Below, one piece after another: positions 5,921 to 53,440 of a stretch of 64,000 nucleotides of DNA. The notes under the pieces are model-generated. The model saw nothing but the letters and a program-made list of their open reading frames with translations, made no database searches and had not been told where the DNA came from. A program made the position numbers and the translations under genes. Source of the DNA: Myxococcota bacterium (GTDB lineage Bacteria > Myxococcota_A > Bradymonadia > UBA7976 > UBA1532); assembly GCA_963169045.1 (NCBI GenBank), contig CAUJDF010000105.1:9086-73085 (forward strand), written 5' to 3'. Position 1 is the stretch's first letter. Every line of letters starts with the position of its first letter.

Positions 5921-6392
5921 TCACGACCCGAGTAGGACGCGAGTAAGGGAGTCCCTGTCCCACCAGGCACGGCGGCGTTTCGTGGCGATGCCGACCTTGC
6001 GGGACGTGTCCTTCTTCAGCAGGGCGAGAGCGACGCGGCGCAATGCCGCGAGATTGAGGGCGGAGTTGTCGCGGCGGACGCGGGAGCGGTCCTCGATGGT
6101 CCGCGCAATCTCGCGCTGGGTCCCGATCGAGCCAGCGCCCGAGCCGACTCGAGAGTTCAACGGCGTCGACCCTCCGGAAGACGCGGCCGAGCGTGTCGTG
6201 CGACGGGATGCCGTTCGGCAGCTCGAGGGACTCACGAAGCCACTTCTCGTTGGCGTCGCCGAACTCCTCGACGACGACCCAGTTGTCAGCGCCCCCGAGC
6301 GTGGCGATGAGCGCCCGCAGCACGATATCGGTCAGCTTGTGCAGCTTCGTGCGGTCGACGCGCGGGTCGGGGAGGTCCTCCAGGAAGGACAC
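5921..6392 (-). mobile_element. ISAs1-family transposase remnant. An N-terminal ~89 aa and a C-terminal ~70 aa are joined out of frame, so ~200 internal codons are deleted.
   Basis: The N-terminal part MSFLEDLPDPRVDRTKLHKLTDIVLRALIATLGG...NGIPSHDTLGRVF is the ISAs1/H-repeat signature. The C-terminal part NLAALRRVALALLKKDTSRKVGIATKRRRAWWDRDSLTRVLL is the ISAs1 C-terminus. The frames differ and the junction is at about 6126-6130. Confidence 0.7.
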
Positions 6393-6587
6393 GATGTGGA
6401 TGACGTCGTCGTTGCCGCTGCGACCGGTGCTCCTGGGCCTCTCCGCCCGGCCGCAAGTTCAGCGCGTGTCCGAGCCCCGGTCGTCGATCACGATCGACGT
6501 GCCACGTCAATGACGTTTCGATGCGGTCGCCCCCTCGCTGGCAAGGTGACCAGGACAGTCGGGGGGTCAACTGTCTACCATGGGGGC

Positions 6588-6815
6588 ATGGTCCGCAACG
6601 CCCTCCACCTGCTCGCCTTCGTCGCGCCGTGGCTCCTCGTGAACCGTGTGCTGGGGGTGAACCTCGCCGCCTGCGTCCTGCGCCAGGCGACGACGGGTGA
6701 CTGCCCCACCGACCAGGGCACGCTCGGCCTCGTGGCGTTCGCCGCCGCGGTGGTGGTCAGCGGCGCGACGTTCGCCCACTGGCTGCTGACGAACGACCGG
6801 CGCACGGCGTCGTAG
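6588..6815 (+). CDS. Small hypothetical membrane protein (75 aa, 2 TM helices).
   Basis: MVRNALHLLAFVAPWLLVNRVLG...GLVAFAAAVVVSGATFAHWLL. It is the in-frame tail of table ORF 5562..6815, with a G-rich stretch before the ATG. Confidence 0.4.
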   Translation: MVRNALHLLAFVAPWLLVNRVLGVNLAACVLRQATTGDCPTDQGTLGLVAFAAAVVVSGATFAHWLLTNDRRTAS

Positions 6816-6898
6816 GGGGTCGTGACGGCGCCGACGGCGCCCGCGGCATTGCCGAACGGCCTCGCCGCCATCGGTTTTCGCTGTAGCATGCGGGCCCG

Positions 6899-8470
6899 AT
6901 GCAGTCGTCCGTCCCGGTGCTGATCGGCCTGATCGTCGCGGCCACGCTGATGGCCATGGCCGCCAAGCGCATGCGCCTGCCGTACAGCGTGGCGCTCGTC
7001 GCCGGCGGCATGGCGATCGCCGTCTCGGGGCTGCTGCCCGTCGTGCCCCGGCTGGCGCCGGAGACGGTGTTCCTCGTGTGTCTGCCCGCGCTGCTCTTCG
7101 AGGGCGGCATCTCCGCCGACGTGCAGGGCATCCGCGCCAACGCCATCCCGATCGCCGTGCTGGCGGTGGTCGGCACCGGGATCGCCATCGGCGTGACCGC
7201 CGTCGCGCTGCACGCGTTCCTCGACCTGCCGTGGATCGCCGCGCTGTTGCTGGCGGCGCTGATGGGGGGCACCGATACCGTCTCGATTTTGTTCACCTTT
7301 CGGCGTCTCGTCGTGCCGTCGCGCCTGTCGGGCATCATGTCGGGCGAGACGCTCTTCAATGACGGCGCCACGCTCGTCGCCTACGCGGCGATCGCCGGCG
7401 TGCTGACCGAGGGGGTCGCGCCCGCGCCGGGGCCGATGGCCGGCGGACTCCTGTGGAGCACGGTCGGCGGCGCCGCCATCGGCCTGGCGCTGGCGGCGGT
7501 CGGCAGCATGTTGGTCCGCCGCACCGAGGATCCGCTCGCCGAGCTCATGGCCACGACGGCGATCGCCTATGGCGCCTACACCGCCGCCAACGAGGTCGGC
7601 GTCTCGGGGGCCATCGCCGCGGTCTCGGCGGGTCTGGTCGTCGGTGCGACCGCGCGCGCGCACCTGCCGCCGCAGAGCCGCATCGCGCTGTCCAGCTTCT
7701 GGGAGTACGTGGCCTTCGGCGTGAACACGTTCCTGTTCCTGCTGATCGGCCTCAGCACCGATCCGGTGTCGATCGGCAGCCACATCGGCGAGATCCTCGC
7801 CGGCTTCGCGTGCGTCCTCGGCGGCCGGGCGGCGGCGATCTACGTGCCGTTCCTCTTCGTGCGCTGGCTGCGCCCCGCTCACTGGGTGCCGATGCGCTGG
7901 CAGCACGTGTTCGTGTACGGGAACATCAAGGGCGCGCTGGCCGTGGCGCTCGCGCTGGGTCTGCCGCCCGAGACGCCCGAGCGGCAGGTCCTGGTCGACG
8001 TGGCCTTCGGCGTGAGCTTCGTCTCGCTGGTCTTCCAGGGCTCGACGCTGCCGGTGGTCGTGCGCTGGCTGGGGCTGTCGCTCCACGACCCGGTCGCGCT
8101 GGGGCTCGGCGAGCAACAGGCGCGACTCGTCGCCGCGCGGGCGGCGCGCCAGGAGCTCGACCAGCTGTTCGCGTCGGGCCTCGTGCCGCGGTCCGGCTAC
8201 GATCAGCTGCGCAGCGACTACCAGGTGGAGATCGCGCGGGCGGAGCGCACGCTGCGCAGCCTGCACGAGCGCCATCTGGCCCACGGCGCGATGCTGCTGC
8301 TCGCCACGCGGCGGCGGCTCGTCGACGCCGAGCGGACGGCTGTCGGCGCGGCGCAGCGGGCAGGGCTGGTGCCGACCGACGCCGCGGACCGCGTCCTGGC
8401 GGAGCTGGACGACGAAGTGCTGCGCATCGAGCGGGTGCTGGCCGGCGAAGCGCCGACGGAGGGGAGATGA
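6899..8470 (+). CDS. nhaP: Na+/H+ (cation:proton) antiporter, CPA1/NhaP-type.
   Basis: About 12 TM helices. CPA1 motifs are present (e.g. FLFLLIG, the NDG region ETLFNDGATLV), with a cytoplasmic C-terminal tail. Confidence 0.85.
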   Translation: MQSSVPVLIGLIVAATLMAMAAKRMRLPYSVALVAGGMAIAVSGLLPVVPRLAPETVFLVCLPALLFEGGISADVQGIRANAIPIAVLAVVGTGIAIGVTAVALHAFLDLPWIAALLLAALMGGTDTVSILFTFRRLVVPSRLSGIMSGETLFNDGATLVAYAAIAGVLTEGVAPAPGPMAGGLLWSTVGGAAIGLALAAVGSMLVRRTEDPLAELMATTAIAYGAYTAANEVGVSGAIAAVSAGLVVGATARAHLPPQSRIALSSFWEYVAFGVNTFLFLLIGLSTDPVSIGSHIGEILAGFACVLGGRAAAIYVPFLFVRWLRPAHWVPMRWQHVFVYGNIKGALAVALALGLPPETPERQVLVDVAFGVSFVSLVFQGSTLPVVVRWLGLSLHDPVALGLGEQQARLVAARAARQELDQLFASGLVPRSGYDQLRSDYQVEIARAERTLRSLHERHLAHGAMLLLATRRRLVDAERTAVGAAQRAGLVPTDAADRVLAELDDEVLRIERVLAGEAPTEGR

Positions 8471-44856: not shown

Positions 44857-45597
44857 TCAGCGCCCGCAGACCTCGGAGACGCCGAGCTGGCAGGCGCGGG
44901 CGCGCAGCTTCGCGGCGCCCTCGGGGTTGGCGGCGACGCCCCGGCCCGTCTTCATCGCCTCGGAGAGCAGGAAGCAGCCGGGGCCGTAACCACCCTTACA
45001 GGCGCGGGCGAACAGCTCGGCCGCCTGCCTTGCGTCACCGCCCTCCGCGCGCACCACGCCGAGCGCGCCGCACGCGCTGGGCGAGCCGCCGTCGCAGCCT
45101 TTCTGCAGCAGATTCGCGGCCTTGTCGGCGTCGCCAGGCACGCCCTCGCCCTGCCGGTACATGAAGCCGAGCGCCCCGCAGGCGAACGCGTCGCCGGCCC
45201 GGCACGCCTTCTCGTACAGCGCCGCCGCCTTCACCGCGTCGCGCGGCACGCCCTCGCCGTCCTGGTAGAACGCGGCGAGGTTGGCGCAGCCCGGCGCGTC
45301 GCCGCCGTCGCACGCCTTCTGGAAGAGCGCGCGGGCCTCGCCCAGATCGCGCGCGCCGCCGGCGACGAGGCGAAAGGCGACCTTCGTGCAGCCCTTGGCG
45401 ACGCCGACCTCGCAGGCCTTGCGGAAGGCGGCGAGCGCGGCCTTGCCGTCGGTCTTCGCGAGCGCGTCGCCGGCGGCCAGGCAGGCCGCGCCCTCGCCCT
45501 TGTCGCAGCGGGCGCGGCACTCGTCGGGGGCCGCGCAGGGAGCCGCGGCGGCGACGCCGGCGGCGAGCATGAAGGCCGAGAAGAAGAGAGTTCGCAT
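44857..45597 (-). CDS. Secreted Sel1-repeat (TPR-like) protein.
   Basis: Signal peptide MRTLFFSAFMLAAGVAAAAP. Repeated KACDGGDAPGCANLAAFYQDGEGVPRDAVKAAALYEKAC units. Confidence 0.8.
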   Translation of the reverse strand: MRTLFFSAFMLAAGVAAAAPCAAPDECRARCDKGEGAACLAAGDALAKTDGKAALAAFRKACEVGVAKGCTKVAFRLVAGGARDLGEARALFQKACDGGDAPGCANLAAFYQDGEGVPRDAVKAAALYEKACRAGDAFACGALGFMYRQGEGVPGDADKAANLLQKGCDGGSPSACGALGVVRAEGGDARQAAELFARACKGGYGPGCFLLSEAMKTGRGVAANPEGAAKLRARACQLGVSEVCGR

Positions 45598-45679: not shown

Positions 45680-46747
45680 ATGAACACCGACACGCTCCGC
45701 CTGGCGCCCCGCATGCTCTCGGCCTCGCCGCTCCTCGGCGCCTGGACGCGCGCCCTGCCGCCGCTGCTCGCGCTGGCGGGGACGGCCGGCGTGTACGCGC
45801 TGGCGACGGCGCTGCTGCCCCGGGACGGCCGGCTGGCGGCGCTGCTGCTCGACCGTGGCTTCTGCCAGCCCCTGACGATGGGCCTGTTCTTCTGGGGCCT
45901 CGGCCACGCGCTGCGACGCGTGCTCGTCCAGGCCGGCGAGCGCCAGGCGCTGGGCGGCTGCCGGGCGCTGCTCGTCGAGGGCCTCGACCGCGACCAGATC
46001 AACAACCACGCCGCGGCGCTCCTGCCCATCCGCGACAGCCTCGCGGCGCCGGTGCTCGGCTCGATCCTCAACTACTTCCGCAACGCGCGTCCGAGCCGCG
46101 ACGAGGTGCTCAAGGTCGCCGAGACGCAGCTCGACCGCGCCTACGACCGCATCGAGAGCGAGTACAAGGCGCTCACCGCGGTGATGTGGCTGCTGCCGCT
46201 CACCGGCTTCCTCGGCACCGTCTTCGGCATGGCCCAGGCCATCGAGGGCATGGAGGGCGTGATCGCCAGCGGCGGCGCGGACCTGATGGCCCTGACGCCG
46301 ACGGTGAACGGCCTGTCGATCGCGTTCGACACGACGCTGCTGGCGCTCGTGCTGGTGCTGCCGCTGAAGCTCGTCGAGGTCGGGCTCGAGGCGCGGGACC
46401 GGCGGCTGCTCGACGCCATCGACGCCACCGTCGGCGCGGGCCTCGTGGGCCACCTCGACCTCGGCACGCTCGCGCAGCAGACCCCCGAGGAGCGGGCGCT
46501 CGACCGCGTGAACGAGAGCGTGGAGCGCATGGAGCGCAACCTGCGCCGCGTCGACGAGGCGCTCGGCCGGGTGGCGACGCGCATGGCCGAGGCCGCCGCG
46601 TTCACCGACGGCCTGGGCGAGATCGTGGAGGCGGCGCGGGCCACGCGGCGCGCGCTGCCCGAGGTCCAGGGCGAGCTGCGCAAGCTGCGCGAGCAGGGCG
46701 ACGCGCCGCTGACGGTCGTCCGCACGCGCCGCGGAGACGGGACGTGA
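45680..46747 (+). CDS. MotA/TolQ/ExbB-family proton-channel protein with a C-terminal coiled-coil tail, 355 aa.
   Basis: Three TM helices. The family signature is MWLLPLTGFLGTVFGM...NGLSIAFDTTLLALVLVLP. Confidence 0.8.
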   Translation: MNTDTLRLAPRMLSASPLLGAWTRALPPLLALAGTAGVYALATALLPRDGRLAALLLDRGFCQPLTMGLFFWGLGHALRRVLVQAGERQALGGCRALLVEGLDRDQINNHAAALLPIRDSLAAPVLGSILNYFRNARPSRDEVLKVAETQLDRAYDRIESEYKALTAVMWLLPLTGFLGTVFGMAQAIEGMEGVIASGGADLMALTPTVNGLSIAFDTTLLALVLVLPLKLVEVGLEARDRRLLDAIDATVGAGLVGHLDLGTLAQQTPEERALDRVNESVERMERNLRRVDEALGRVATRMAEAAAFTDGLGEIVEAARATRRALPEVQGELRKLREQGDAPLTVVRTRRGDGT

Positions 46748-47784
46748 AGCGCCGCCGCCGCGGGCGCGACCACGGCGAGAGCTTCGGCACGTCGCTGGCC
46801 GACATCCTGACGACGGCGCTCGGCTGCGTGCTGCTGCTGTTCCTCGTCGTGGTGCTCAACGTGCGCGCCTCGCTGTCGAAGGCGACCGAGGCGCAGTCGG
46901 CGGAGCAGGCGAAGCGCGAGGCGGCGCAGCGCGCGATGCTGCAGGAGGCCGCCGAGAAGGGGCAGGCGGAGCGCGCGCTGAAGGCGCAGAGCGATCAGGT
47001 GCGCGCGCTCGAGGAGGCGCTGCGCCAGGCGACGGCGGCCGCCGACGCCCGCGGCACGGAGCTCGCGGCGCTCCGCGGCGCCGCGGCGGCGACGCTCGCC
47101 GACCTCGACCCGCACACCGCGAGCCCCGTGGACGTGATGCTGGTGGTCGACGGCACCCGCTCCATGGCGCCGAGCCTCGAAGCGGCGCGCCGCGACCTCA
47201 AGGCGACGGTGAAGGCGCTGCGTGTGGTGAGCCCGACGGCGCGCGTCGGCGTCGTCGTGTTCCGCGACCGGCGCGAGCCGGGCGGCCTGCGCCTGCAGGT
47301 GCAGCCGCTGACGGCGGAAGTGTCCGATCTGCAAGCCTTTCTCGATGACATCCAGGCGACGAGCACCGCGGTGGACGTCGACCGCCCCGAGTGGCTGTGC
47401 GGCGGCATCGGCGCGGCGGCGGGCGCCGCGTGGCGCCCCGAGGCCATCCGCCTGATGCTCGTCGTCTCGGACGCCGCCGACCACGACCCGTCGGCGCGCG
47501 ACTGCGTCGAGGAGGTCGGCGCGTTCCAGCGGGCCGGCGGTCGGGTCCACGTGCTGACGACCCACCCGTCCGGCTTCGGCGTGCGCCACGACGTCACGCA
47601 GGACTACGAGGACGTGGTGCTGCCCCAGCACCGTCTCATCGCCGAGGCCGGCGGCGGCTTGCACCTCGAGGGCGCCGACGCCGACGCGCTGCTGACGGAG
47701 GTGCTCGGGGCGGCGTTCCGCTCGCGCACGGCGGCGCCCGTGGACCGCCTGCGGCGCGCCCTCGACCCGCCGCCCGCGGAGTGA
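46744..47784 (+). CDS. ExbD/TolR/MotB-like TM plug fused to a coiled coil and a periplasmic von Willebrand factor A (vWA) domain, 346 aa. The GTG start overlaps the upstream stop (GTGA).
   Basis: The TM segment SLADILTTALGCVLLLFLVVVLNV carries a conserved Asp. The vWA MIDAS reads VDVMLVVDGTRSMAP...VGVVVFRD. Confidence 0.7.
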   Translation: MKRRRRGRDHGESFGTSLADILTTALGCVLLLFLVVVLNVRASLSKATEAQSAEQAKREAAQRAMLQEAAEKGQAERALKAQSDQVRALEEALRQATAAADARGTELAALRGAAAATLADLDPHTASPVDVMLVVDGTRSMAPSLEAARRDLKATVKALRVVSPTARVGVVVFRDRREPGGLRLQVQPLTAEVSDLQAFLDDIQATSTAVDVDRPEWLCGGIGAAAGAAWRPEAIRLMLVVSDAADHDPSARDCVEEVGAFQRAGGRVHVLTTHPSGFGVRHDVTQDYEDVVLPQHRLIAEAGGGLHLEGADADALLTEVLGAAFRSRTAAPVDRLRRALDPPPAE

Positions 47785-47819
47785 CTACACTCGCGCCGCC
47801 TCATGCCGGAGAGCGAACG

Positions 47820-48866
47820 ATGCGAACGTGGTGGCTGGCCCTCTCCCTGCTCGTCCTGCCGCTTGCCGCGCCGGCCCAGGACGCGAGCCTGCAGTACCGC
47901 CTCACCGAGGTGGTGACCGACGGCACCCCGGCGACGCTGACGCTGGTGGCCAACGCGGACCTCGGCGACGTCTCGGTGACGCTGTCCCCCGACAAGGGCA
48001 AGGGGCGCACGTTCAAGGTCGGCAAGCTGCTGGCCGGCGAGCAGAAGGAGCTGACGTTCCCCGTGCCGAAGGGCGAGAGCCGCTGGCGGGCGGCGCTCGC
48101 GTGGCGCGAGGGCGCCGCGAAGGGCGAGAGCAACGCCGAGCTCGTGATCAACAGCCTGCCGCGCTTCGACGTCCAGATGGACAAGAAGGACATCCAGCTC
48201 GAAGAGCGGCGCGCGGTCGCGACGCCGACGCGCGCGCTGTCGGCGGTCGAGATCGTCATCCGCGACCGCAGCGGCGAGATCGCCGTCGAGCGCCGCGTCG
48301 ATCTGCCCGACAGCGAGGCCGGCAAGCCCGTGGAGATCCGCTGGGACATGCCGGCGGGCACCGAGGCCGCGGTTGCCGACTTCAAGTTCCACGACCAGCA
48401 CGAGTTCTGGACGGCGGTCCGCGTGGCGGTCTGGTCGATCGACATCCCGCACGAGGACGTCGTCTTCGAGACGGCGAAGTGGGACGTCCGCGCCGAAGAG
48501 GCCCACAAGCTCGACCAGGCCATTCAGCTCGCGCGCAAGGAGATGGCCCGCTTCGAGCGCGACCTCGGCAAGGCCGGCATCAAGGTCGAAGGCGCCGTCT
48601 ACGTCGCCGGCTACACCGACACCGTGGGCGGCAGCGGCGACAACCTGGCGCTGAGCGAGAAGCGCGCCCGTGCCATCGCCGAGTACTTCAAGAAGCATGG
48701 CATCGGCCTGCCGGTGTATTACCAGGGCTTCGGGGAGTCGGTGCTCGCGGTGTCGACCGCCGACGAGACGGACGAGGCGAAGAACCGCCGCGCCGCATAC
48801 GTGCTGGCGAGCGCGCCGCCGTCGGGCGGGCAGTTCCCCGGCGCCGCGTGGCGGCCGCTCCGCTGA
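47820..48866 (+). CDS. Periplasmic OmpA-family (peptidoglycan-binding) protein with an N-terminal domain, 348 aa.
   Basis: Signal peptide MRTWWLALSLLVLPLAAPAQDA. The OmpA C-terminal domain reads VYVAGYTDTVGGSGDNLALSEKRARAIAEYF...NRRAAYVL. SD GGAGAG precedes it. Confidence 0.8.
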   Translation: MRTWWLALSLLVLPLAAPAQDASLQYRLTEVVTDGTPATLTLVANADLGDVSVTLSPDKGKGRTFKVGKLLAGEQKELTFPVPKGESRWRAALAWREGAAKGESNAELVINSLPRFDVQMDKKDIQLEERRAVATPTRALSAVEIVIRDRSGEIAVERRVDLPDSEAGKPVEIRWDMPAGTEAAVADFKFHDQHEFWTAVRVAVWSIDIPHEDVVFETAKWDVRAEEAHKLDQAIQLARKEMARFERDLGKAGIKVEGAVYVAGYTDTVGGSGDNLALSEKRARAIAEYFKKHGIGLPVYYQGFGESVLAVSTADETDEAKNRRAAYVLASAPPSGGQFPGAAWRPLR

Positions 48867-48914: not shown

Positions 48915-50417
48915 CTATGGCGGCGGGTACTCGCACCTTCGCGGCTGCCCGGGCAGCGCGCCGCCGCGACAGCGCAGCGGCGCGCTGCAGTCGTCGTCGC
49001 CGCGGCACGCGCGGAACACACAGACGCCGAGCTCGTCCCCGTTGCGCGTGAGCGGGGAGATGTGATCCGGGTCGTCGGGGCAGGTCGGGTTCACCGCGGT
49101 GTTCCAGAGGCTGGCGCAGATGCCCTGGGTGGGATCGGCGCCGACGCGCAGGCAGGCGCCGCGGCAGGGCACCGCGGGCGGGAAGTTGCCCTCGGCCGCC
49201 AGCGTGCAGGGCTCGCCGTCGGGCAGCGCGTCGAGATCGACCGGCGCGCCGCAGCCGCCGTGACGCGGGTTGCAGACGGTGGTCGGCGGGCAGTCGGCGT
49301 CGTCGACGCAGTAGGGAAAGCAGCCCGGCTGGTCGGGCTGCGCCTGGGGCTGCAAGAACCAGAAGCCGGTGCAGATCTGTCCGCGGGCGCAGTCGTCGCC
49401 GCCCGGCGTGCACGTCGACGTGCAGTAGGGGCCGCCGACGCCGTTCAGGCACGTCGTGCCGGGGCCGCCGCACGCCGCCGCCTCCTCGAGGCGGTCGAGC
49501 GAGGGGGGGCAGGGCGCCGTGCAGCGGCCGCCGGGCGCGCGCGCGTCGCAGACGAGCGCGGCGTCGGCGCAGTCGTCGTCATTGTCGCACTGGGCGCCGG
49601 CGGCGGGGGCGGCGGCGCGCGGGCGCTCGGGCGGGGCGTCGCGGCCGGGCGCCGCCTCGCAGGGGAGGGCGTCGGCGGCGGGTGCCATCGTGCTGCGGCG
49701 CAGGTACACGGTGACGACGCGCTCGTACCGCTGCGACGGCGCCGGCCACTCGTCCCCGCTCCGCGCGCGGGTGTGGCAGGCGGTGCGGGCGTCGCCGTTC
49801 GCCGCGTCCGTCCCCTCGCAGGCGCGGTCGCACGGTCCGACCACCTGCAGGCCACACCGGTTGCCCGGCAGCGTACAGGCCCGGAACGTCAGCGACAGCG
49901 GGTCGTCGCCCGTCCCGCGGCAGGCATACTCCCGCGGCGGGTCGGTGAACATGTTGCCGAAGAAGGCGCCCTCTTCGATGGGATAACGCCGCAGGTCGTC
50001 GACGCTCTCGGTGAGCGCCGGGTGGGTGCCGCGGGCGTGGATGATCACCGGGATGCCATAGGCGTTGGCCCGCGCGAACATGCACGCCGACACCCACTCC
50101 TGGCACTCGACGTCACACGGCGCGTCGGCCCACGCCGGCGCGAGGCCGATGCCACCGTGGAAGGTCGTCGGCTCCGGCTCGGTGGGCAGCGTCACCGACT
50201 GGTCGGCCTCGAGCGCGCACTCGACGAGGTGGTGAACGAAGGTCCACGTGGAGGGATCGAACTGCACCGCCTCGACGAGCCCCGGCAGCATCGCGAGCGC
50301 GTCGGTGGCGAGCGGCGCGGTCGCCATCTGTTGGACGGGGCCGCCGTTCGTCCAGAGGTCGGCGAGCGCCGCGCGAGACAGCAAGAGACAGACCAGCAGG
50401 GACGTGGCGCGCTTCAC
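48915..50417 (-). CDS. Secreted Cys-rich hypothetical protein (about 500 aa). A GTG start is inferred before the signal peptide.
   Basis: The signal peptide is VKRATSLLVCLLLSRAALA. The C-terminal half is rich in paired cysteines. The upstream in-frame extension (to 50840) has no protein-like features. Confidence 0.6.
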   Translation of the reverse strand: MKRATSLLVCLLLSRAALADLWTNGGPVQQMATAPLATDALAMLPGLVEAVQFDPSTWTFVHHLVECALEADQSVTLPTEPEPTTFHGGIGLAPAWADAPCDVECQEWVSACMFARANAYGIPVIIHARGTHPALTESVDDLRRYPIEEGAFFGNMFTDPPREYACRGTGDDPLSLTFRACTLPGNRCGLQVVGPCDRACEGTDAANGDARTACHTRARSGDEWPAPSQRYERVVTVYLRRSTMAPAADALPCEAAPGRDAPPERPRAAAPAAGAQCDNDDDCADAALVCDARAPGGRCTAPCPPSLDRLEEAAACGGPGTTCLNGVGGPYCTSTCTPGGDDCARGQICTGFWFLQPQAQPDQPGCFPYCVDDADCPPTTVCNPRHGGCGAPVDLDALPDGEPCTLAAEGNFPPAVPCRGACLRVGADPTQGICASLWNTAVNPTCPDDPDHISPLTRNGDELGVCVFRACRGDDDCSAPLRCRGGALPGQPRRCEYPPP

Positions 50418-51376: not shown

Positions 51377-53440
51377 CTACTCGAGCTCGTTCTCGGTGTA
51401 GAGGCCGGCGCCGCCGTTGACGTTGCCCTGGGCGTCGATGGTCCCGACGCGCTCGAACGTCGCGTAGACGCCGTCGCAGTCGAGGTCGCCGATGGCGCGC
51501 GCGGTGAACGCGGCGTCCGGGCCGGTGCCGGAGGAGATGAACTCGTAGCGATAGCGGTGGGGCGACTCGACGGCGAAGTTCAACGCCTTCCAGGCCGGGT
51601 GGCGCCAGGCGTCCGGGTCGGGCTCGTAGCGGTCGCGCCCCTGCTTGCAGAAGTCCTCGGCGGGCGTGAGCGGGGCGCTCGGGGGGAACTGGCGCGGCAG
51701 CCGGTTGCCCTCCGCGTCGACCTGGTCCTCGTTGTAGGCGAACACCGCGCTGTCGAAGAGCTTGCGGAGGTTCATCGTCGCCTCGCTCGTCTTCGAGCGG
51801 CGCTGGTACTTGAGGAACGAGGGGATGGCGACGGCGGCGGCGATGCCGGTCATCGCCGCGACGGTGACCCCGCCGCTGCTGCCACCGGTCTTCAGGCCCT
51901 GGTCGTCGAGCTCGACGGTCGCGGCGAAGCCCTCGGACGGCAGGTACTTCTTCATGAGCTCGAGCTCGCCGGCGCCGAGCTCGCCGCCGGCGTTGGCGAG
52001 CGCGGCGTCCATCCAGCCGGCGCCGACGCCCATCGCGTAGATGGCGTCGCCGTCGAGCGCCTTGCCGGCGGGCGTGCCGGACAGGTCGTCCGCGCGGTCG
52101 AGCGCCGCCTCCACGGTGGCCGGGTCGAGCGCGGCGAGCATCACGTCGCCTGCGCGCACGACCGTCGTCGTCGCGCTGCCCCGGGTGATCCGGTAGCCGG
52201 GGTGGCCCTTGATCTCCAGCGCCTCGGACTCGACGCCGCCGTCCTTCGCGCGGCCGAGCAGCGCCTTGACGACCGTGTCGGCCTTCTCCTTGTCGGCGAC
52301 GCCGATGACCACGAGGATCTTCGGCGTCTGCGCGGGCGCCTTGGGCACCTCCATGCCGAGCGCGACGTGGCCCGTGAAGCCGGCGGCGAGGTCGTCGTAG
52401 GACGCGCCGATGGCCATCGGCAGGAAGTTCTTGCCGAGCAGGATCTGGCCCTTGATGTCGCCCTTCGACGGGGGGATGAGCGCCTGGATGCCATCGAACA
52501 GGTCCGTCAGGTTGATGCTCAGGCGCGAGACGGCCCAGCCCTCCTTCGGGAAGTAGCGCGACATCTTCGGCGCGCTGCGGCGCGGCACGGCGATCTGGCG
52601 CAGCGCCTTGGCGCCCTCGCCGTCGGTGAGCAGGCGGAAGCTGCCCGCCTTCGGCCCGAAGCTGAACGCCAGCGCCCGGAAGCGCTGCGTGTAGAACGAG
52701 ACGATGTCCGCGGGCGCCTCGTCCTTCAGGCCCGGCAGCTGCGCGACGCCCGCCGAGGAGGCGAACGTCCACACGCGCGGCCGCGGCGCGCCGTCCTTCA
52801 GCGCGGCGCGAAACGCCTCGTCGCCGGCCAGCGCCGGCCCGGATCCGCCGAGGAACGCGTCGAACTGCGCGCGGAGCGCGGCCTCGTCCGCGCCCTTCGC
52901 GAGCGGCATCACGACCGTCATGTCGCCGCGCTTGCCCCACAGCATCCGCTCGTCGCTCGACGTGGCGATCTCGCTCGGCCCCTTCTGATCGGCGAAGGCG
53001 AAGCTCGCCCCCTTCGCGTTGAGCGCCGCCACGAGCTTCTCGCGGTCGGTGATGCGCGCCAGGATCAGCGGGATGGGCTCCTTGCCGCGCATGAACCGCG
53101 CGTCGACGGCGACGGCGACGCCCGCGGCGGGGTCGACGCCGATCGACTGCCAGCCCTGGGCCGTCGTGGGATCGAAGCCGAGCTTCTCGTTGCGCTTCGC
53201 GGGGTCGAGCAGCTCCGGCGGCGCGTCCTTGCGCAGCGCCTCGGGGAGCTCCCGCAGCAGCGAGTCGGCCTCCTTCGCGAGCTGGTCGAGGTCCTCCGCG
53301 CCGACGACCGCGACGGTGTGCGGGGCGTCGAGCGCCGCCGCGAGGGACGGCGCGCCGCCGCCGCCCGTCCTCTGCACGATGAACCAGGCCGCCGTGGCCG
53401 CGGCGCCGACGAACAGCGTCGCGAAGATCGCCTTCTTCAC
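51377..53440 (-). CDS. 687-aa protein: an N-terminal signal/anchor, a large periplasmic domain, then a C-terminal type-IV-pilin-like domain that lacks the canonical G|FTLIE processing site. GTG start.
   Basis: The C-terminal ...GVTVAAMTGIAAAVAIPSFLKYQRRSKTSEATMNLRKLFDSAVFAY... closely parallels the myxobacterial pilin N-region (AIPNFIKFQARSKQSEAKTNLKAL), and a pilin-like GDLDCDG tail follows. SD GGGAGG precedes the GTG. Confidence 0.75.
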   Translation of the reverse strand: MKKAIFATLFVGAAATAAWFIVQRTGGGGAPSLAAALDAPHTVAVVGAEDLDQLAKEADSLLRELPEALRKDAPPELLDPAKRNEKLGFDPTTAQGWQSIGVDPAAGVAVAVDARFMRGKEPIPLILARITDREKLVAALNAKGASFAFADQKGPSEIATSSDERMLWGKRGDMTVVMPLAKGADEAALRAQFDAFLGGSGPALAGDEAFRAALKDGAPRPRVWTFASSAGVAQLPGLKDEAPADIVSFYTQRFRALAFSFGPKAGSFRLLTDGEGAKALRQIAVPRRSAPKMSRYFPKEGWAVSRLSINLTDLFDGIQALIPPSKGDIKGQILLGKNFLPMAIGASYDDLAAGFTGHVALGMEVPKAPAQTPKILVVIGVADKEKADTVVKALLGRAKDGGVESEALEIKGHPGYRITRGSATTTVVRAGDVMLAALDPATVEAALDRADDLSGTPAGKALDGDAIYAMGVGAGWMDAALANAGGELGAGELELMKKYLPSEGFAATVELDDQGLKTGGSSGGVTVAAMTGIAAAVAIPSFLKYQRRSKTSEATMNLRKLFDSAVFAYNEDQVDAEGNRLPRQFPPSAPLTPAEDFCKQGRDRYEPDPDAWRHPAWKALNFAVESPHRYRYEFISSGTGPDAAFTARAIGDLDCDGVYATFERVGTIDAQGNVNGGAGLYTENELE

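Follow-up and report, generated by a model that had tools for sequence, protein, structure and literature searches.

A 64,000-nucleotide stretch of a Myxococcota genome assigned to the Bradymonadia (contig CAUJDF010000105.1, positions 9,086 to 73,085; hereafter the window, with positions counted from its first letter) carries two adjacent genes that together encode a channel subunit of the TolQ/ExbB fold (gene 1) and a membrane-tethered protein made of a trans-pore helix (TPH), a coiled-coil stalk and a head of the von Willebrand factor A (vWA) type (gene 2). Ion-driven motors of the 5:2 type power flagella, Ton and Tol transport, gliding and Zorya defence. We read the two genes as a two-component motor of this type that is driven by the proton-motive force and acts on a periplasmic ligand, and we put the probability of this reading at about one half. 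The folds of both products, their key residues, the strict pairing of the genes, a stalk locked to whole heptads and a disulfide-type pair of cysteines were established by the analysis. The architecture was already proposed in silico in 2025, and the clade described here is a distinct variant of it.

The conserved unit is a pair of genes

The window has a G+C content of ~74% and public copies of the locus are metagenome assemblies. As reported in a preliminary description of this DNA, which was made from the sequence alone, positions 45680-48866 are filled by three co-directional open reading frames (ORFs) on the + strand. The first two of these form the pair:

45680..46747, + strand: gene 1, 355 aa, TolQ/ExbB-fold channel (A) subunit (Pfam MotA_ExbB, AlphaFold2 (AF2) model, Foldseek)
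46744..47784, + strand: gene 2, 346 aa, B subunit with trans-pore helix, coiled-coil stalk and vWA head

They are bordered by the third ORF and, on the other side, by a divergently oriented gene:

47820..48866, + strand: gene 3, 348 aa, secreted, Ig-like region followed by an OmpA peptidoglycan-binding domain
44857..45597, - strand: Sel1-repeat gene, 246 aa, secreted Cys-rich protein, divergent from gene 1 (Pfam Sel1, E=1.2e-20)

Scans for promoter-like, terminator-like, Rfam and tRNA features found none in or near the region. Genes 1 and 2 overlap by the sequence GTGA at 46744-46747, with the GTG start of gene 2 on the stop of gene 1, and a 4-bp overlap between them is present in all five loci for which public gene calls exist. 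The preliminary description had instead placed a GTGA coupling between genes 2 and 3. There is a second GTGA at the gene 2 stop (GTG at 47781), but the gene 3 start is better placed at the ATG at 47820, which has a GGAGAG Shine-Dalgarno sequence, coincides exactly with the beginning of the signal peptide and is the start chosen in public gene calls. Thus, the secure and conserved overlap is that of genes 1 and 2.

Twelve window proteins were compared by tblastn with 22 loci drawn from GTDB genomes and public contigs, and in every one of the 22 gene 1 lies beside gene 2. Five further metagenome loci presented the same picture; in the three metagenome loci that included upstream DNA the two genes were likewise adjacent, which gives 25/25, at identities down to ~40%. 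This adjacency is far beyond chance. The idea that genes 1 and 2 are two unrelated membrane proteins that happen to be neighbours is effectively refuted by these comparative data: in addition to the constant adjacency and the 4-bp overlap, the two partners diverged in parallel (see below), and a channel subunit lacking any other B-type partner adjoins a protein with a B-type Asp helix. No other B-type gene was found within ~8 kb upstream or 5.5 kb downstream of the pair.

When all window neighbours were used as tblastn queries, covering 27 related loci, genes 1 and 2 were the only matches. No homologs of the N-terminal part of gene 3, of the Sel1 protein or of the other neighbours were detected next to the pair in ~25 loci, and OmpA-domain matches occurred in only two loci, 5-6 kb away from it. 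Since only genes 1 and 2 recur, the conserved system is a two-gene pair and not the three-gene unit first described, nor does the adjacent Sel1-repeat gene, which had been named as a possible conserved neighbour, accompany it elsewhere. We therefore rejected both the OmpA gene 3 and the Sel1 gene as core partners, given their failure to recur beside the pair in the 27 loci.

The window and all related loci have one vWA gene each. Immediate neighbours, compared in 13 loci, differ from genome to genome (among them are large secreted repeat proteins, lipoproteins, a GTPase and a kinase) and display no consistent functional theme. Pfam scans of all neighbours between 37.4 and 54.4 kb of the window found no ExbD, TolR, MotB, TolA, TonB, ZorC or ZorD gene nearby, the stand-alone OmpA protein of gene 3 being the only partial likeness to MotB. 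The carriers are all uncultured Myxococcota, Bradymonadia or unclassified metagenome-assembled genomes (MAGs), with no cultured myxobacterium among them. Plasmid and viral collections held no relatives of the Myxococcota family, and viral matches to the more distant family introduced below span only part of the vWA domain.

Gene 1 encodes a channel subunit related in fold to TolQ and ExbB

The MotA/ExbB channel identity originally assigned to gene 1 is upheld by a Pfam MotA_ExbB match above the cutoff (E=5.1e-11, 42.8 bits against 22.9) and by its predicted structure. The AF2 model, built from 21 homologs, has a predicted local distance difference test score (pLDDT) of 84.4, and its best Foldseek matches in the PDB are TolQ and ExbB chains taken from TolQRA, TolQR and ExbBD complexes (9kq0, 9ddm and 6tyi; probability 1.0, target TM-score 0.57-0.69). 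Chains of MotA, PomA and ZorA come much further down the list; those of MotA reach target TM-scores of 0.33-0.42. Hydropathy indicates three transmembrane (TM) segments at residues 28-47, 164-185 and 208-238, as in TolQ. Two parts of the protein are important for what follows:

46169..46393, + strand: TM2-loop-TM3 core, with GFLGTVFGM (T180) and AFDTTLLAL...P (T219, P228)
46484..46744, + strand: C-terminal cytoplasmic hairpin and tail, helices 269-306 and 313-341 (AF2, alignment)

In an alignment with TolQ and ExbB of E. coli MG1655, the G-x-x-G-T-V-x-G motif and the second pore Thr are invariant. T180 aligns with TolQ T145 and ExbB T148, T219 with TolQ T178 and ExbB T181, and P228 with TolQ P187; all three residues are invariant in the 21 gene 1 homologs. 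The NCBIfam TolQ equivalog, in turn, scores only 18.8 bits on gene 1 against a cutoff of 221, and a PDB sequence search with the gene 1 family profile returned no solved motor subunit, only designed coiled coils that match the tail. The tail itself is ~90 aa long, which is short compared with that of ZorA, and includes two residues, P343 and R348, that are invariant in the aligned homologs. The extra hairpin is missing from the 266-273 aa A subunits of a related, kinase-linked family.

Gene 2 joins a trans-pore helix, a heptad-locked stalk and a vWA head

The gene 2 product has a strongly basic N-terminus (MKRRRRGR), followed by one very hydrophobic helix and an Ala/Glu/Gln-rich helical region. 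The basic N-terminus implies an N-in, C-out orientation, as is common to all B subunits. Three parts can be delimited:

46783..46863, + strand: trans-pore helix FGTSLADILTTALGCVLLLFLVVVLNV, with the Asp20 codon at 46801-46803
46864..47118, + strand: coiled-coil stalk, residues 41-125, ~85 residues or ~13 nm (AF2, length pattern, periodicity)
47125..47763, + strand: vWA domain, with MIDAS DGTRS (47149-47163), T208, D243 and the Cys219/Cys254 pair

The N-terminal TM helix, FGTSLADILTTALGCVLLLF, is the most conserved part of the protein and contains no His. We found 62 full-length homologs (identity 42-57%). Asp20 is present in 63/63 family members, in agreement with the conserved TM Asp noted at the outset, and Cys28 in 62/63. 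In alignments Asp20 matches D32 of MotB, as well as the Asp found in distant relatives. The sole B-subunit profile touched by gene 2 is that of ZorB1 (a weak match, E=2e-4, residues 3-74); the ExbD, MotB_plug and OmpA profiles of Pfam gave no match. The label of an ExbD/TolR-type plug had to be abandoned, both because no such profile matches and because the helix runs unbroken from the membrane into the coiled coil. In the AF2 model (pLDDT 83.6), this single helix extends from residue 19 to residue 121 and is followed by an alpha/beta domain.

The length of the stalk varies among relatives in a regular manner. The distance from Asp20 to the first Asp of the metal-ion-dependent adhesion site (MIDAS) is 116, 123, 137, 144, 151, 158 or 165 residues, and equals 4 mod 7 (116+7n) in 52 of 56 sequences, where ~1/7 would be expected by chance. 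Moreover, when hydrophobicity along the stalk is averaged over the family, its periodicity peaks at 3.5 residues (power 24.3; median 2.3). Together, the 3.5-residue period and the heptad-quantised indels identify the stalk as a heptad coiled coil that varies by whole heptads. The window protein on its own gave no convincing heptad score, owing to the abundance of Ala, Gln and Glu in its stalk. The window protein belongs to the shortest class, and the coil of relatives reaches up to ~20 nm. As length changes by whole heptads keep the rotational register between the pore helix and the head, the pattern suggests that the stalk is a rigid shaft in which this register is fixed.

The periplasmic part is, as first described, a vWA domain in place of a peptidoglycan-binding domain, and it has a variant of the MIDAS motif: the fold is supported by AF2 and Foldseek, and the MIDAS residues are invariant or nearly so (D136-x-T138-x-S140 in 63/63 sequences, T208 in 59/63, D243 in 63/63). 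Foldseek matched the domain to TEM8 (3n2n), ANTXR2 (8fz4), the integrin alpha1 I domain (1qc5) and beta-I domains (E ~1e-8, target TM-score 0.67-0.76), and a PDB profile search with gene 2 retrieved the integrin beta-3 beta-I domain (E=4.5e-4). In sequence profile searches the vWA assignment stood only in part: gene 2 homologs give positive Pfam matches and the structure search confirms the fold, but gene 2 itself falls just below the cutoffs (scores are given below). Cys219 and Cys254 are found together in 50 sequences, 8 sequences have neither, and none has C219 without C254. A disulfide would be expected to leave such a pattern, so that the vWA domain is predicted, from the sequences, to be periplasmic.

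Relation to known motor systems

A study published in 2025 reported that TM-tethered vWA proteins co-occur tightly with tolQ-like genes, without tolR or exbD. In AlphaFold3 (AF3) models, their trans-pore helix with a conserved Asp sits in a TolQ-like pentamer against a ring of Thr residues, and it was proposed in silico that rotation of the vWA protein inside the pentamer serves to transduce force (PMC12204202). We found no other paper on such TPH-vWA/TolQ-like systems in the literature searched. The window pair shares with that class every architectural feature that we checked but heterologous pairing: a TM-tethered vWA gene beside a tolQ-like gene with no tolR, exbD or motB, a trans-pore Asp without an SHLS/His motif, and a conserved Thr ring (T180, T219). 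Heterologous vWA pairs are predominant (though not obligatory) in the class, whereas the window has one vWA gene. The likeness described here is one of architecture.

Idiomarina loihiensis provided the seed of the published family, which is reported to consist mainly of heterologous vWA gene pairs from Proteobacteria and Verrucomicrobia and has disordered regions near the vWA. The window clade differs in its single vWA gene, its heptad-locked stalk, the extra C-terminal hairpin of its A subunit and its confinement to uncultured Myxococcota/Bradymonadia. That an independent paper arrived, by AF3 modelling, at the same architecture for TPH-vWA and TolQ-like pairs supports the motor reading, and its proposal agrees with the earlier suggestion for this DNA of a machine powered by the proton-motive force that engages a ligand through the vWA domain.

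Among the classical systems, TolQR and ExbBD of E. coli resemble the window pair in the fold of gene 1 with its three TM segments, in the GxxGTVxG motif, in the Pro and the second pore Thr, and in the Asp near the cytoplasmic end of the B helix. However, the window pair has neither the ExbD/TolR periplasmic domain nor a TolA/TonB partner, its B subunit itself bears the effector head, and the sequence profiles of these systems barely match gene 1. In GldLM/PorLM, the B-type subunit GldM is a long, rigid, dimeric periplasmic shaft that takes the output away from the membrane. There is, however, no sequence or domain relation between that system and the window pair (no matches), and the periplasmic region of GldM is multi-domain in contrast to the coiled coil plus vWA of gene 2. 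MotAB/PomAB and ZorAB are likewise A/B pairs with an Asp-bearing B helix, and ZorB1 is matched weakly. Unlike MotB, gene 2 lacks a plug and an OmpA-like domain, and gene 1 has three hydrophobic segments as opposed to the four TM segments of MotA. No flagellar or ZorC-G genes accompany the pair, and gene 1 is structurally nearer to TolQ/ExbB than to MotA/ZorA. PADLOC returned only weak matches (ZorA2, E=0.004; ZorB1, E=2e-4).

Overall, the defining features of the Tol, Ton, Mot and Zorya systems were tested and failed, so the pair is a member of none of them. This bears out the preliminary description on that point, given the TolQ equivalog score, the weak PADLOC matches and the lack of ExbD, TolR, MotB, ZorC or ZorD nearby.

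Distant relatives lie in clusters with kinase, FHA and PP2C genes

When 1.84 billion representatives were searched with a profile, 16 close cluster representatives came out at E<1e-80 and then, after a wide gap, full-length relatives at E~1e-25. The distant relatives have an N-terminus of the form RSRExNxFxMSALDLF..., a helical stalk and a vWA head, and their MIDAS reads DxTxS in 91 of 111 sequences and DxSxS in 20. This distant family comprises at least 285 proteins, in long and short forms. In the five loci that we examined, the cluster order is MotA_ExbB - FHA - PP2C - FHA - TPH-vWA: a small FHA protein follows the TolQ-like gene, then come a PP2C phosphatase and a bitopic FHA protein whose gene overlaps the TPH-vWA gene by 4 bp. 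On their flanks, the clusters have genes for single-pass Ser/Thr kinases whose periplasmic parts are Sel1, FGE-sulfatase or WD40 domains. The positions of the clusters are:

L032, 83-9401: kinase-linked cluster
L033, 275-9547: kinase-linked cluster
L038/L039, 1-7870: kinase-linked cluster
L034, 2157-7107: kinase-linked cluster
L040, 5523-15083: kinase-linked cluster

No description of such kinase-linked motor clusters, in which a motor of the 5:2 type is wired to phospho-signalling, was found in the literature searched. On the A subunits of the clusters, the profile of the gene 1 family reaches 53-71 bits, compared with 8, 6 and 3 bits for TolQ, ExbB and MotA of E. coli, respectively; that of the gene 2 family gives 95-100 bits with the B subunits and stays below 0 with MotB, ExbD and TolR. 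These parallel scores indicate that the A and B subunits diverged together, in a lineage separate from the classical motors. The clusters thus hold the closest detectable relatives of both window subunits and share the architecture of TPH-Asp, helical stalk and vWA head. They differ in carrying phospho-signalling genes, in stalks that are not heptad-quantised and in A subunits without the C-terminal hairpin.

Given this kinship, the pair could be a sensing or signalling device, an offshoot of kinase/FHA/PP2C envelope signalling in which ligand binding at the MIDAS is relayed through the coiled coil to gate ion flow through, or the conformation of, the TolQ-like ring. A phase-locked coiled coil would suit such a conformational relay, and the company that the nearest relatives of both subunits, and similar vWA heads elsewhere, keep (see the next section) also favours signalling. 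However, no FHA or PP2C genes were found near the Myxococcota loci, the kinases near four of these loci occur at about the background rate of the phylum, and the full retention of the proton-relay residues Asp20, Thr180 and Thr219 argues for an active motor. On balance, we consider a signalling device improbable.

An analogous pair occurs in a Phycisphaerales MAG (L027, 2199-10893), where a MotA-like gene (6023-6931) is followed by a gene encoding a TM-Asp helix, a coiled coil and a vWA domain (7001-8191). The A subunit of this pair has no detectable relation to gene 1 (2 bits). The pair lies between a large serine recombinase and a TraG/VirD4-like gene, which suggests that it is carried on an integrative or conjugative element.

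We also considered an anti-phage or conflict system distantly resembling Zorya, in which the vWA head would sense perturbation of the envelope and a protective or abortive response would be set off by the motor or channel. The weak ZorA/ZorB profile matches are compatible with this, as are the self-contained nature of the pair, its different neighbours in each genome and its patchy occurrence (~18 GTDB species representatives were returned by the scan). So are the recombinase and TraG/VirD4-like gene adjoining the Phycisphaerales analogue and the SIR2-like and Fic genes that flank two of the distant clusters. Against this, no effector gene (ZorC-G or a nuclease) is associated with the pair, PADLOC scores are far from significant for any system, relatives are absent from the viral contigs and plasmids searched, and the gene 1 tail is short relative to ZorA. 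A role in defence therefore seems very unlikely.

Proposed mechanism and points against it

In the mechanism that we envisage, five gene 1 subunits of the TolQ/ExbB fold would form a ring in the inner membrane, and the N-terminal helices of two gene 2 subunits would occupy its central pore, with Asp20 facing the ring of Thr180/Thr219. By analogy with MotAB, ExbBD, TolQR, GldLM and ZorAB, the ring and the gene 2 dimer would rotate against each other as protons flow through. The gene 2 helix is predicted to continue unbroken into a parallel coiled coil that ends in two integrin-like MIDAS vWA heads in the periplasm. These heads may grip an envelope protein, located at the peptidoglycan layer or beyond it, by one of its acidic residues, in which case the proton-motive force would be converted into torque or tension on that ligand. 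Such a device would be closer in function to TonB/TolA or to the GldM shaft than to a peptidoglycan-anchored flagellar stator.

Several observations weigh against this motor reading. Its 5:2 stoichiometry is an inference, as are the rotation, the periplasmic ligand and the direction in which the output goes. The nearest relatives of both subunits reside in Ser/Thr kinase, FHA and PP2C clusters, which points towards signalling over mechanical work. In addition, the most similar vWA heads outside these families belong to FHA-TM-vWA proteins of 585-705 aa. The gene 2 scores for vWA in Pfam are just below the cutoffs (VWA, 23.7 against 23.8 bits; VWA_2, 26.1 against 27), and its MIDAS is a DxTxS variant with Thr in place of the first Ser of the canonical DxSxS, a change that may bear on metal binding. 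The extra cytoplasmic hairpin of gene 1 would suit an output on the cytoplasmic side. Lastly, no ligand was identified and no third conserved gene was found at the related loci.

The FHA-TM-vWA proteins among the similar heads, for example P0127, P0131, P0136 and P0152, have an N-terminal FHA domain (Yop-YscD type) and a C-terminal vWA, and link this vWA subtype to FHA-based transmembrane signalling.

A more specific version of the motor reading is a periplasmic rotary actuator of a new kind, in which a TolQ-like ring would either spin a torsionally rigid, phase-locked coiled-coil driveshaft bearing two integrin-like MIDAS heads or be spun against it. Its origin would lie in a widespread envelope system whose 5:2 motor is wired to Ser/Thr phospho-signalling, through loss of the kinase, FHA and PP2C parts. 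We regard this fuller scenario as tentative, and as less probable than the motor reading in its general form.

Gene 3, an anchored alternative and other neighbours

The preliminary description had assigned an OmpA domain to a separate third protein of the module. The protein is as described: gene 3 has a signal peptide, a C-terminal Pfam OmpA match (E=5.2e-10) and a weak match to FlgD_ig (Ig-like), and the GYTD...NLALSEKRA motifs of intact OmpA-type peptidoglycan binding can be read directly in its sequence. Its membership in a conserved module did not hold up in the ~25 related loci. Gene 3 is on the same strand as gene 2 and 35 nt downstream of it, with no terminator-like site in between; it is a lineage-specific addition that is probably co-transcribed with the pair here.

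This arrangement bears on another reading, namely a ligand-anchored stator that works in the manner of Mot or Zorya. The vWA heads would hold a peptidoglycan-fixed partner (here gene 3) and so keep the B dimer from moving, the ring would rotate, and the five C-terminal hairpins would act in the cytoplasm. The conserved hairpin with its invariant P343 and R348, which the related family lacks, is consistent with this, as are the position of gene 3 with its intact OmpA-type motif and the fact that ZorB provides the only B-type profile matches of gene 2. On the other hand, the OmpA gene is beside the pair in no other locus, no cytoplasmic partner gene is conserved, and a shaft locked in heptad phase would be needless for a plain anchor. 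We consider an anchored stator unlikely, though less so than a signalling device.

Under the motor reading, the OmpA protein or the Sel1 protein may be a candidate ligand in this genome; neither is conserved. Kinases encoded next to the distant TPH-vWA clusters have a periplasmic Sel1 region that is similar to the Sel1 protein (32% identity, E=1e-15), and kinase-Sel1 fusions recur in L032, L038 and L040. Judging from sequence similarity, Sel1 repeats could be a partner of the vWA domain or, since such repeats are generic, the resemblance could be mere generic repeat similarity.

Other genes near the pair, in the window and elsewhere, were also recorded. A cysteine-rich secreted protein of ~500 aa (48915-50417, - strand) is encoded convergently with gene 3 and has no Pfam match. 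Further downstream, a 687-aa protein (51377-53440, - strand) has a weak match to DUF3352 and, near residue 525, a segment, AAVAIPSFLKYQRRSKTSEATMNLRKLF, that resembles the helix with which type IV pilin-like proteins begin, although its place in this protein is the C-terminal quarter. In two related loci (L014, 105-5519; L016, 59-5773), a secreted protein of 1800-1900 aa is encoded on the same strand, 70-190 nt upstream of the motor pair. These large proteins are composed of repeated units with Cys-rich linkers and a recurring AEW(I/F)ELYN motif, which is presumably lamin-tail-domain-like.

Implications

Each new output module recognized for 5:2 motors has revealed a new route by which energy of the inner membrane reaches the envelope. 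The significance of the present pair is tempered by the fact that the architecture was already put forward and by the confinement of the family to uncultured bacteria. The heptad-locked stalk makes a clear prediction: the protein should tolerate insertions of 7 residues but not those of 3-4. Some 5:2 motors may be coupled to phospho-signalling, as the kinship with kinase/FHA/PP2C clusters suggests. If the motor reading is true, the pore-inserted subunit would itself be a rigid shaft carrying an adhesion domain of the integrin type, and the pair would offer a compact two-gene system in which to study the conversion of rotation into force on a defined ligand.

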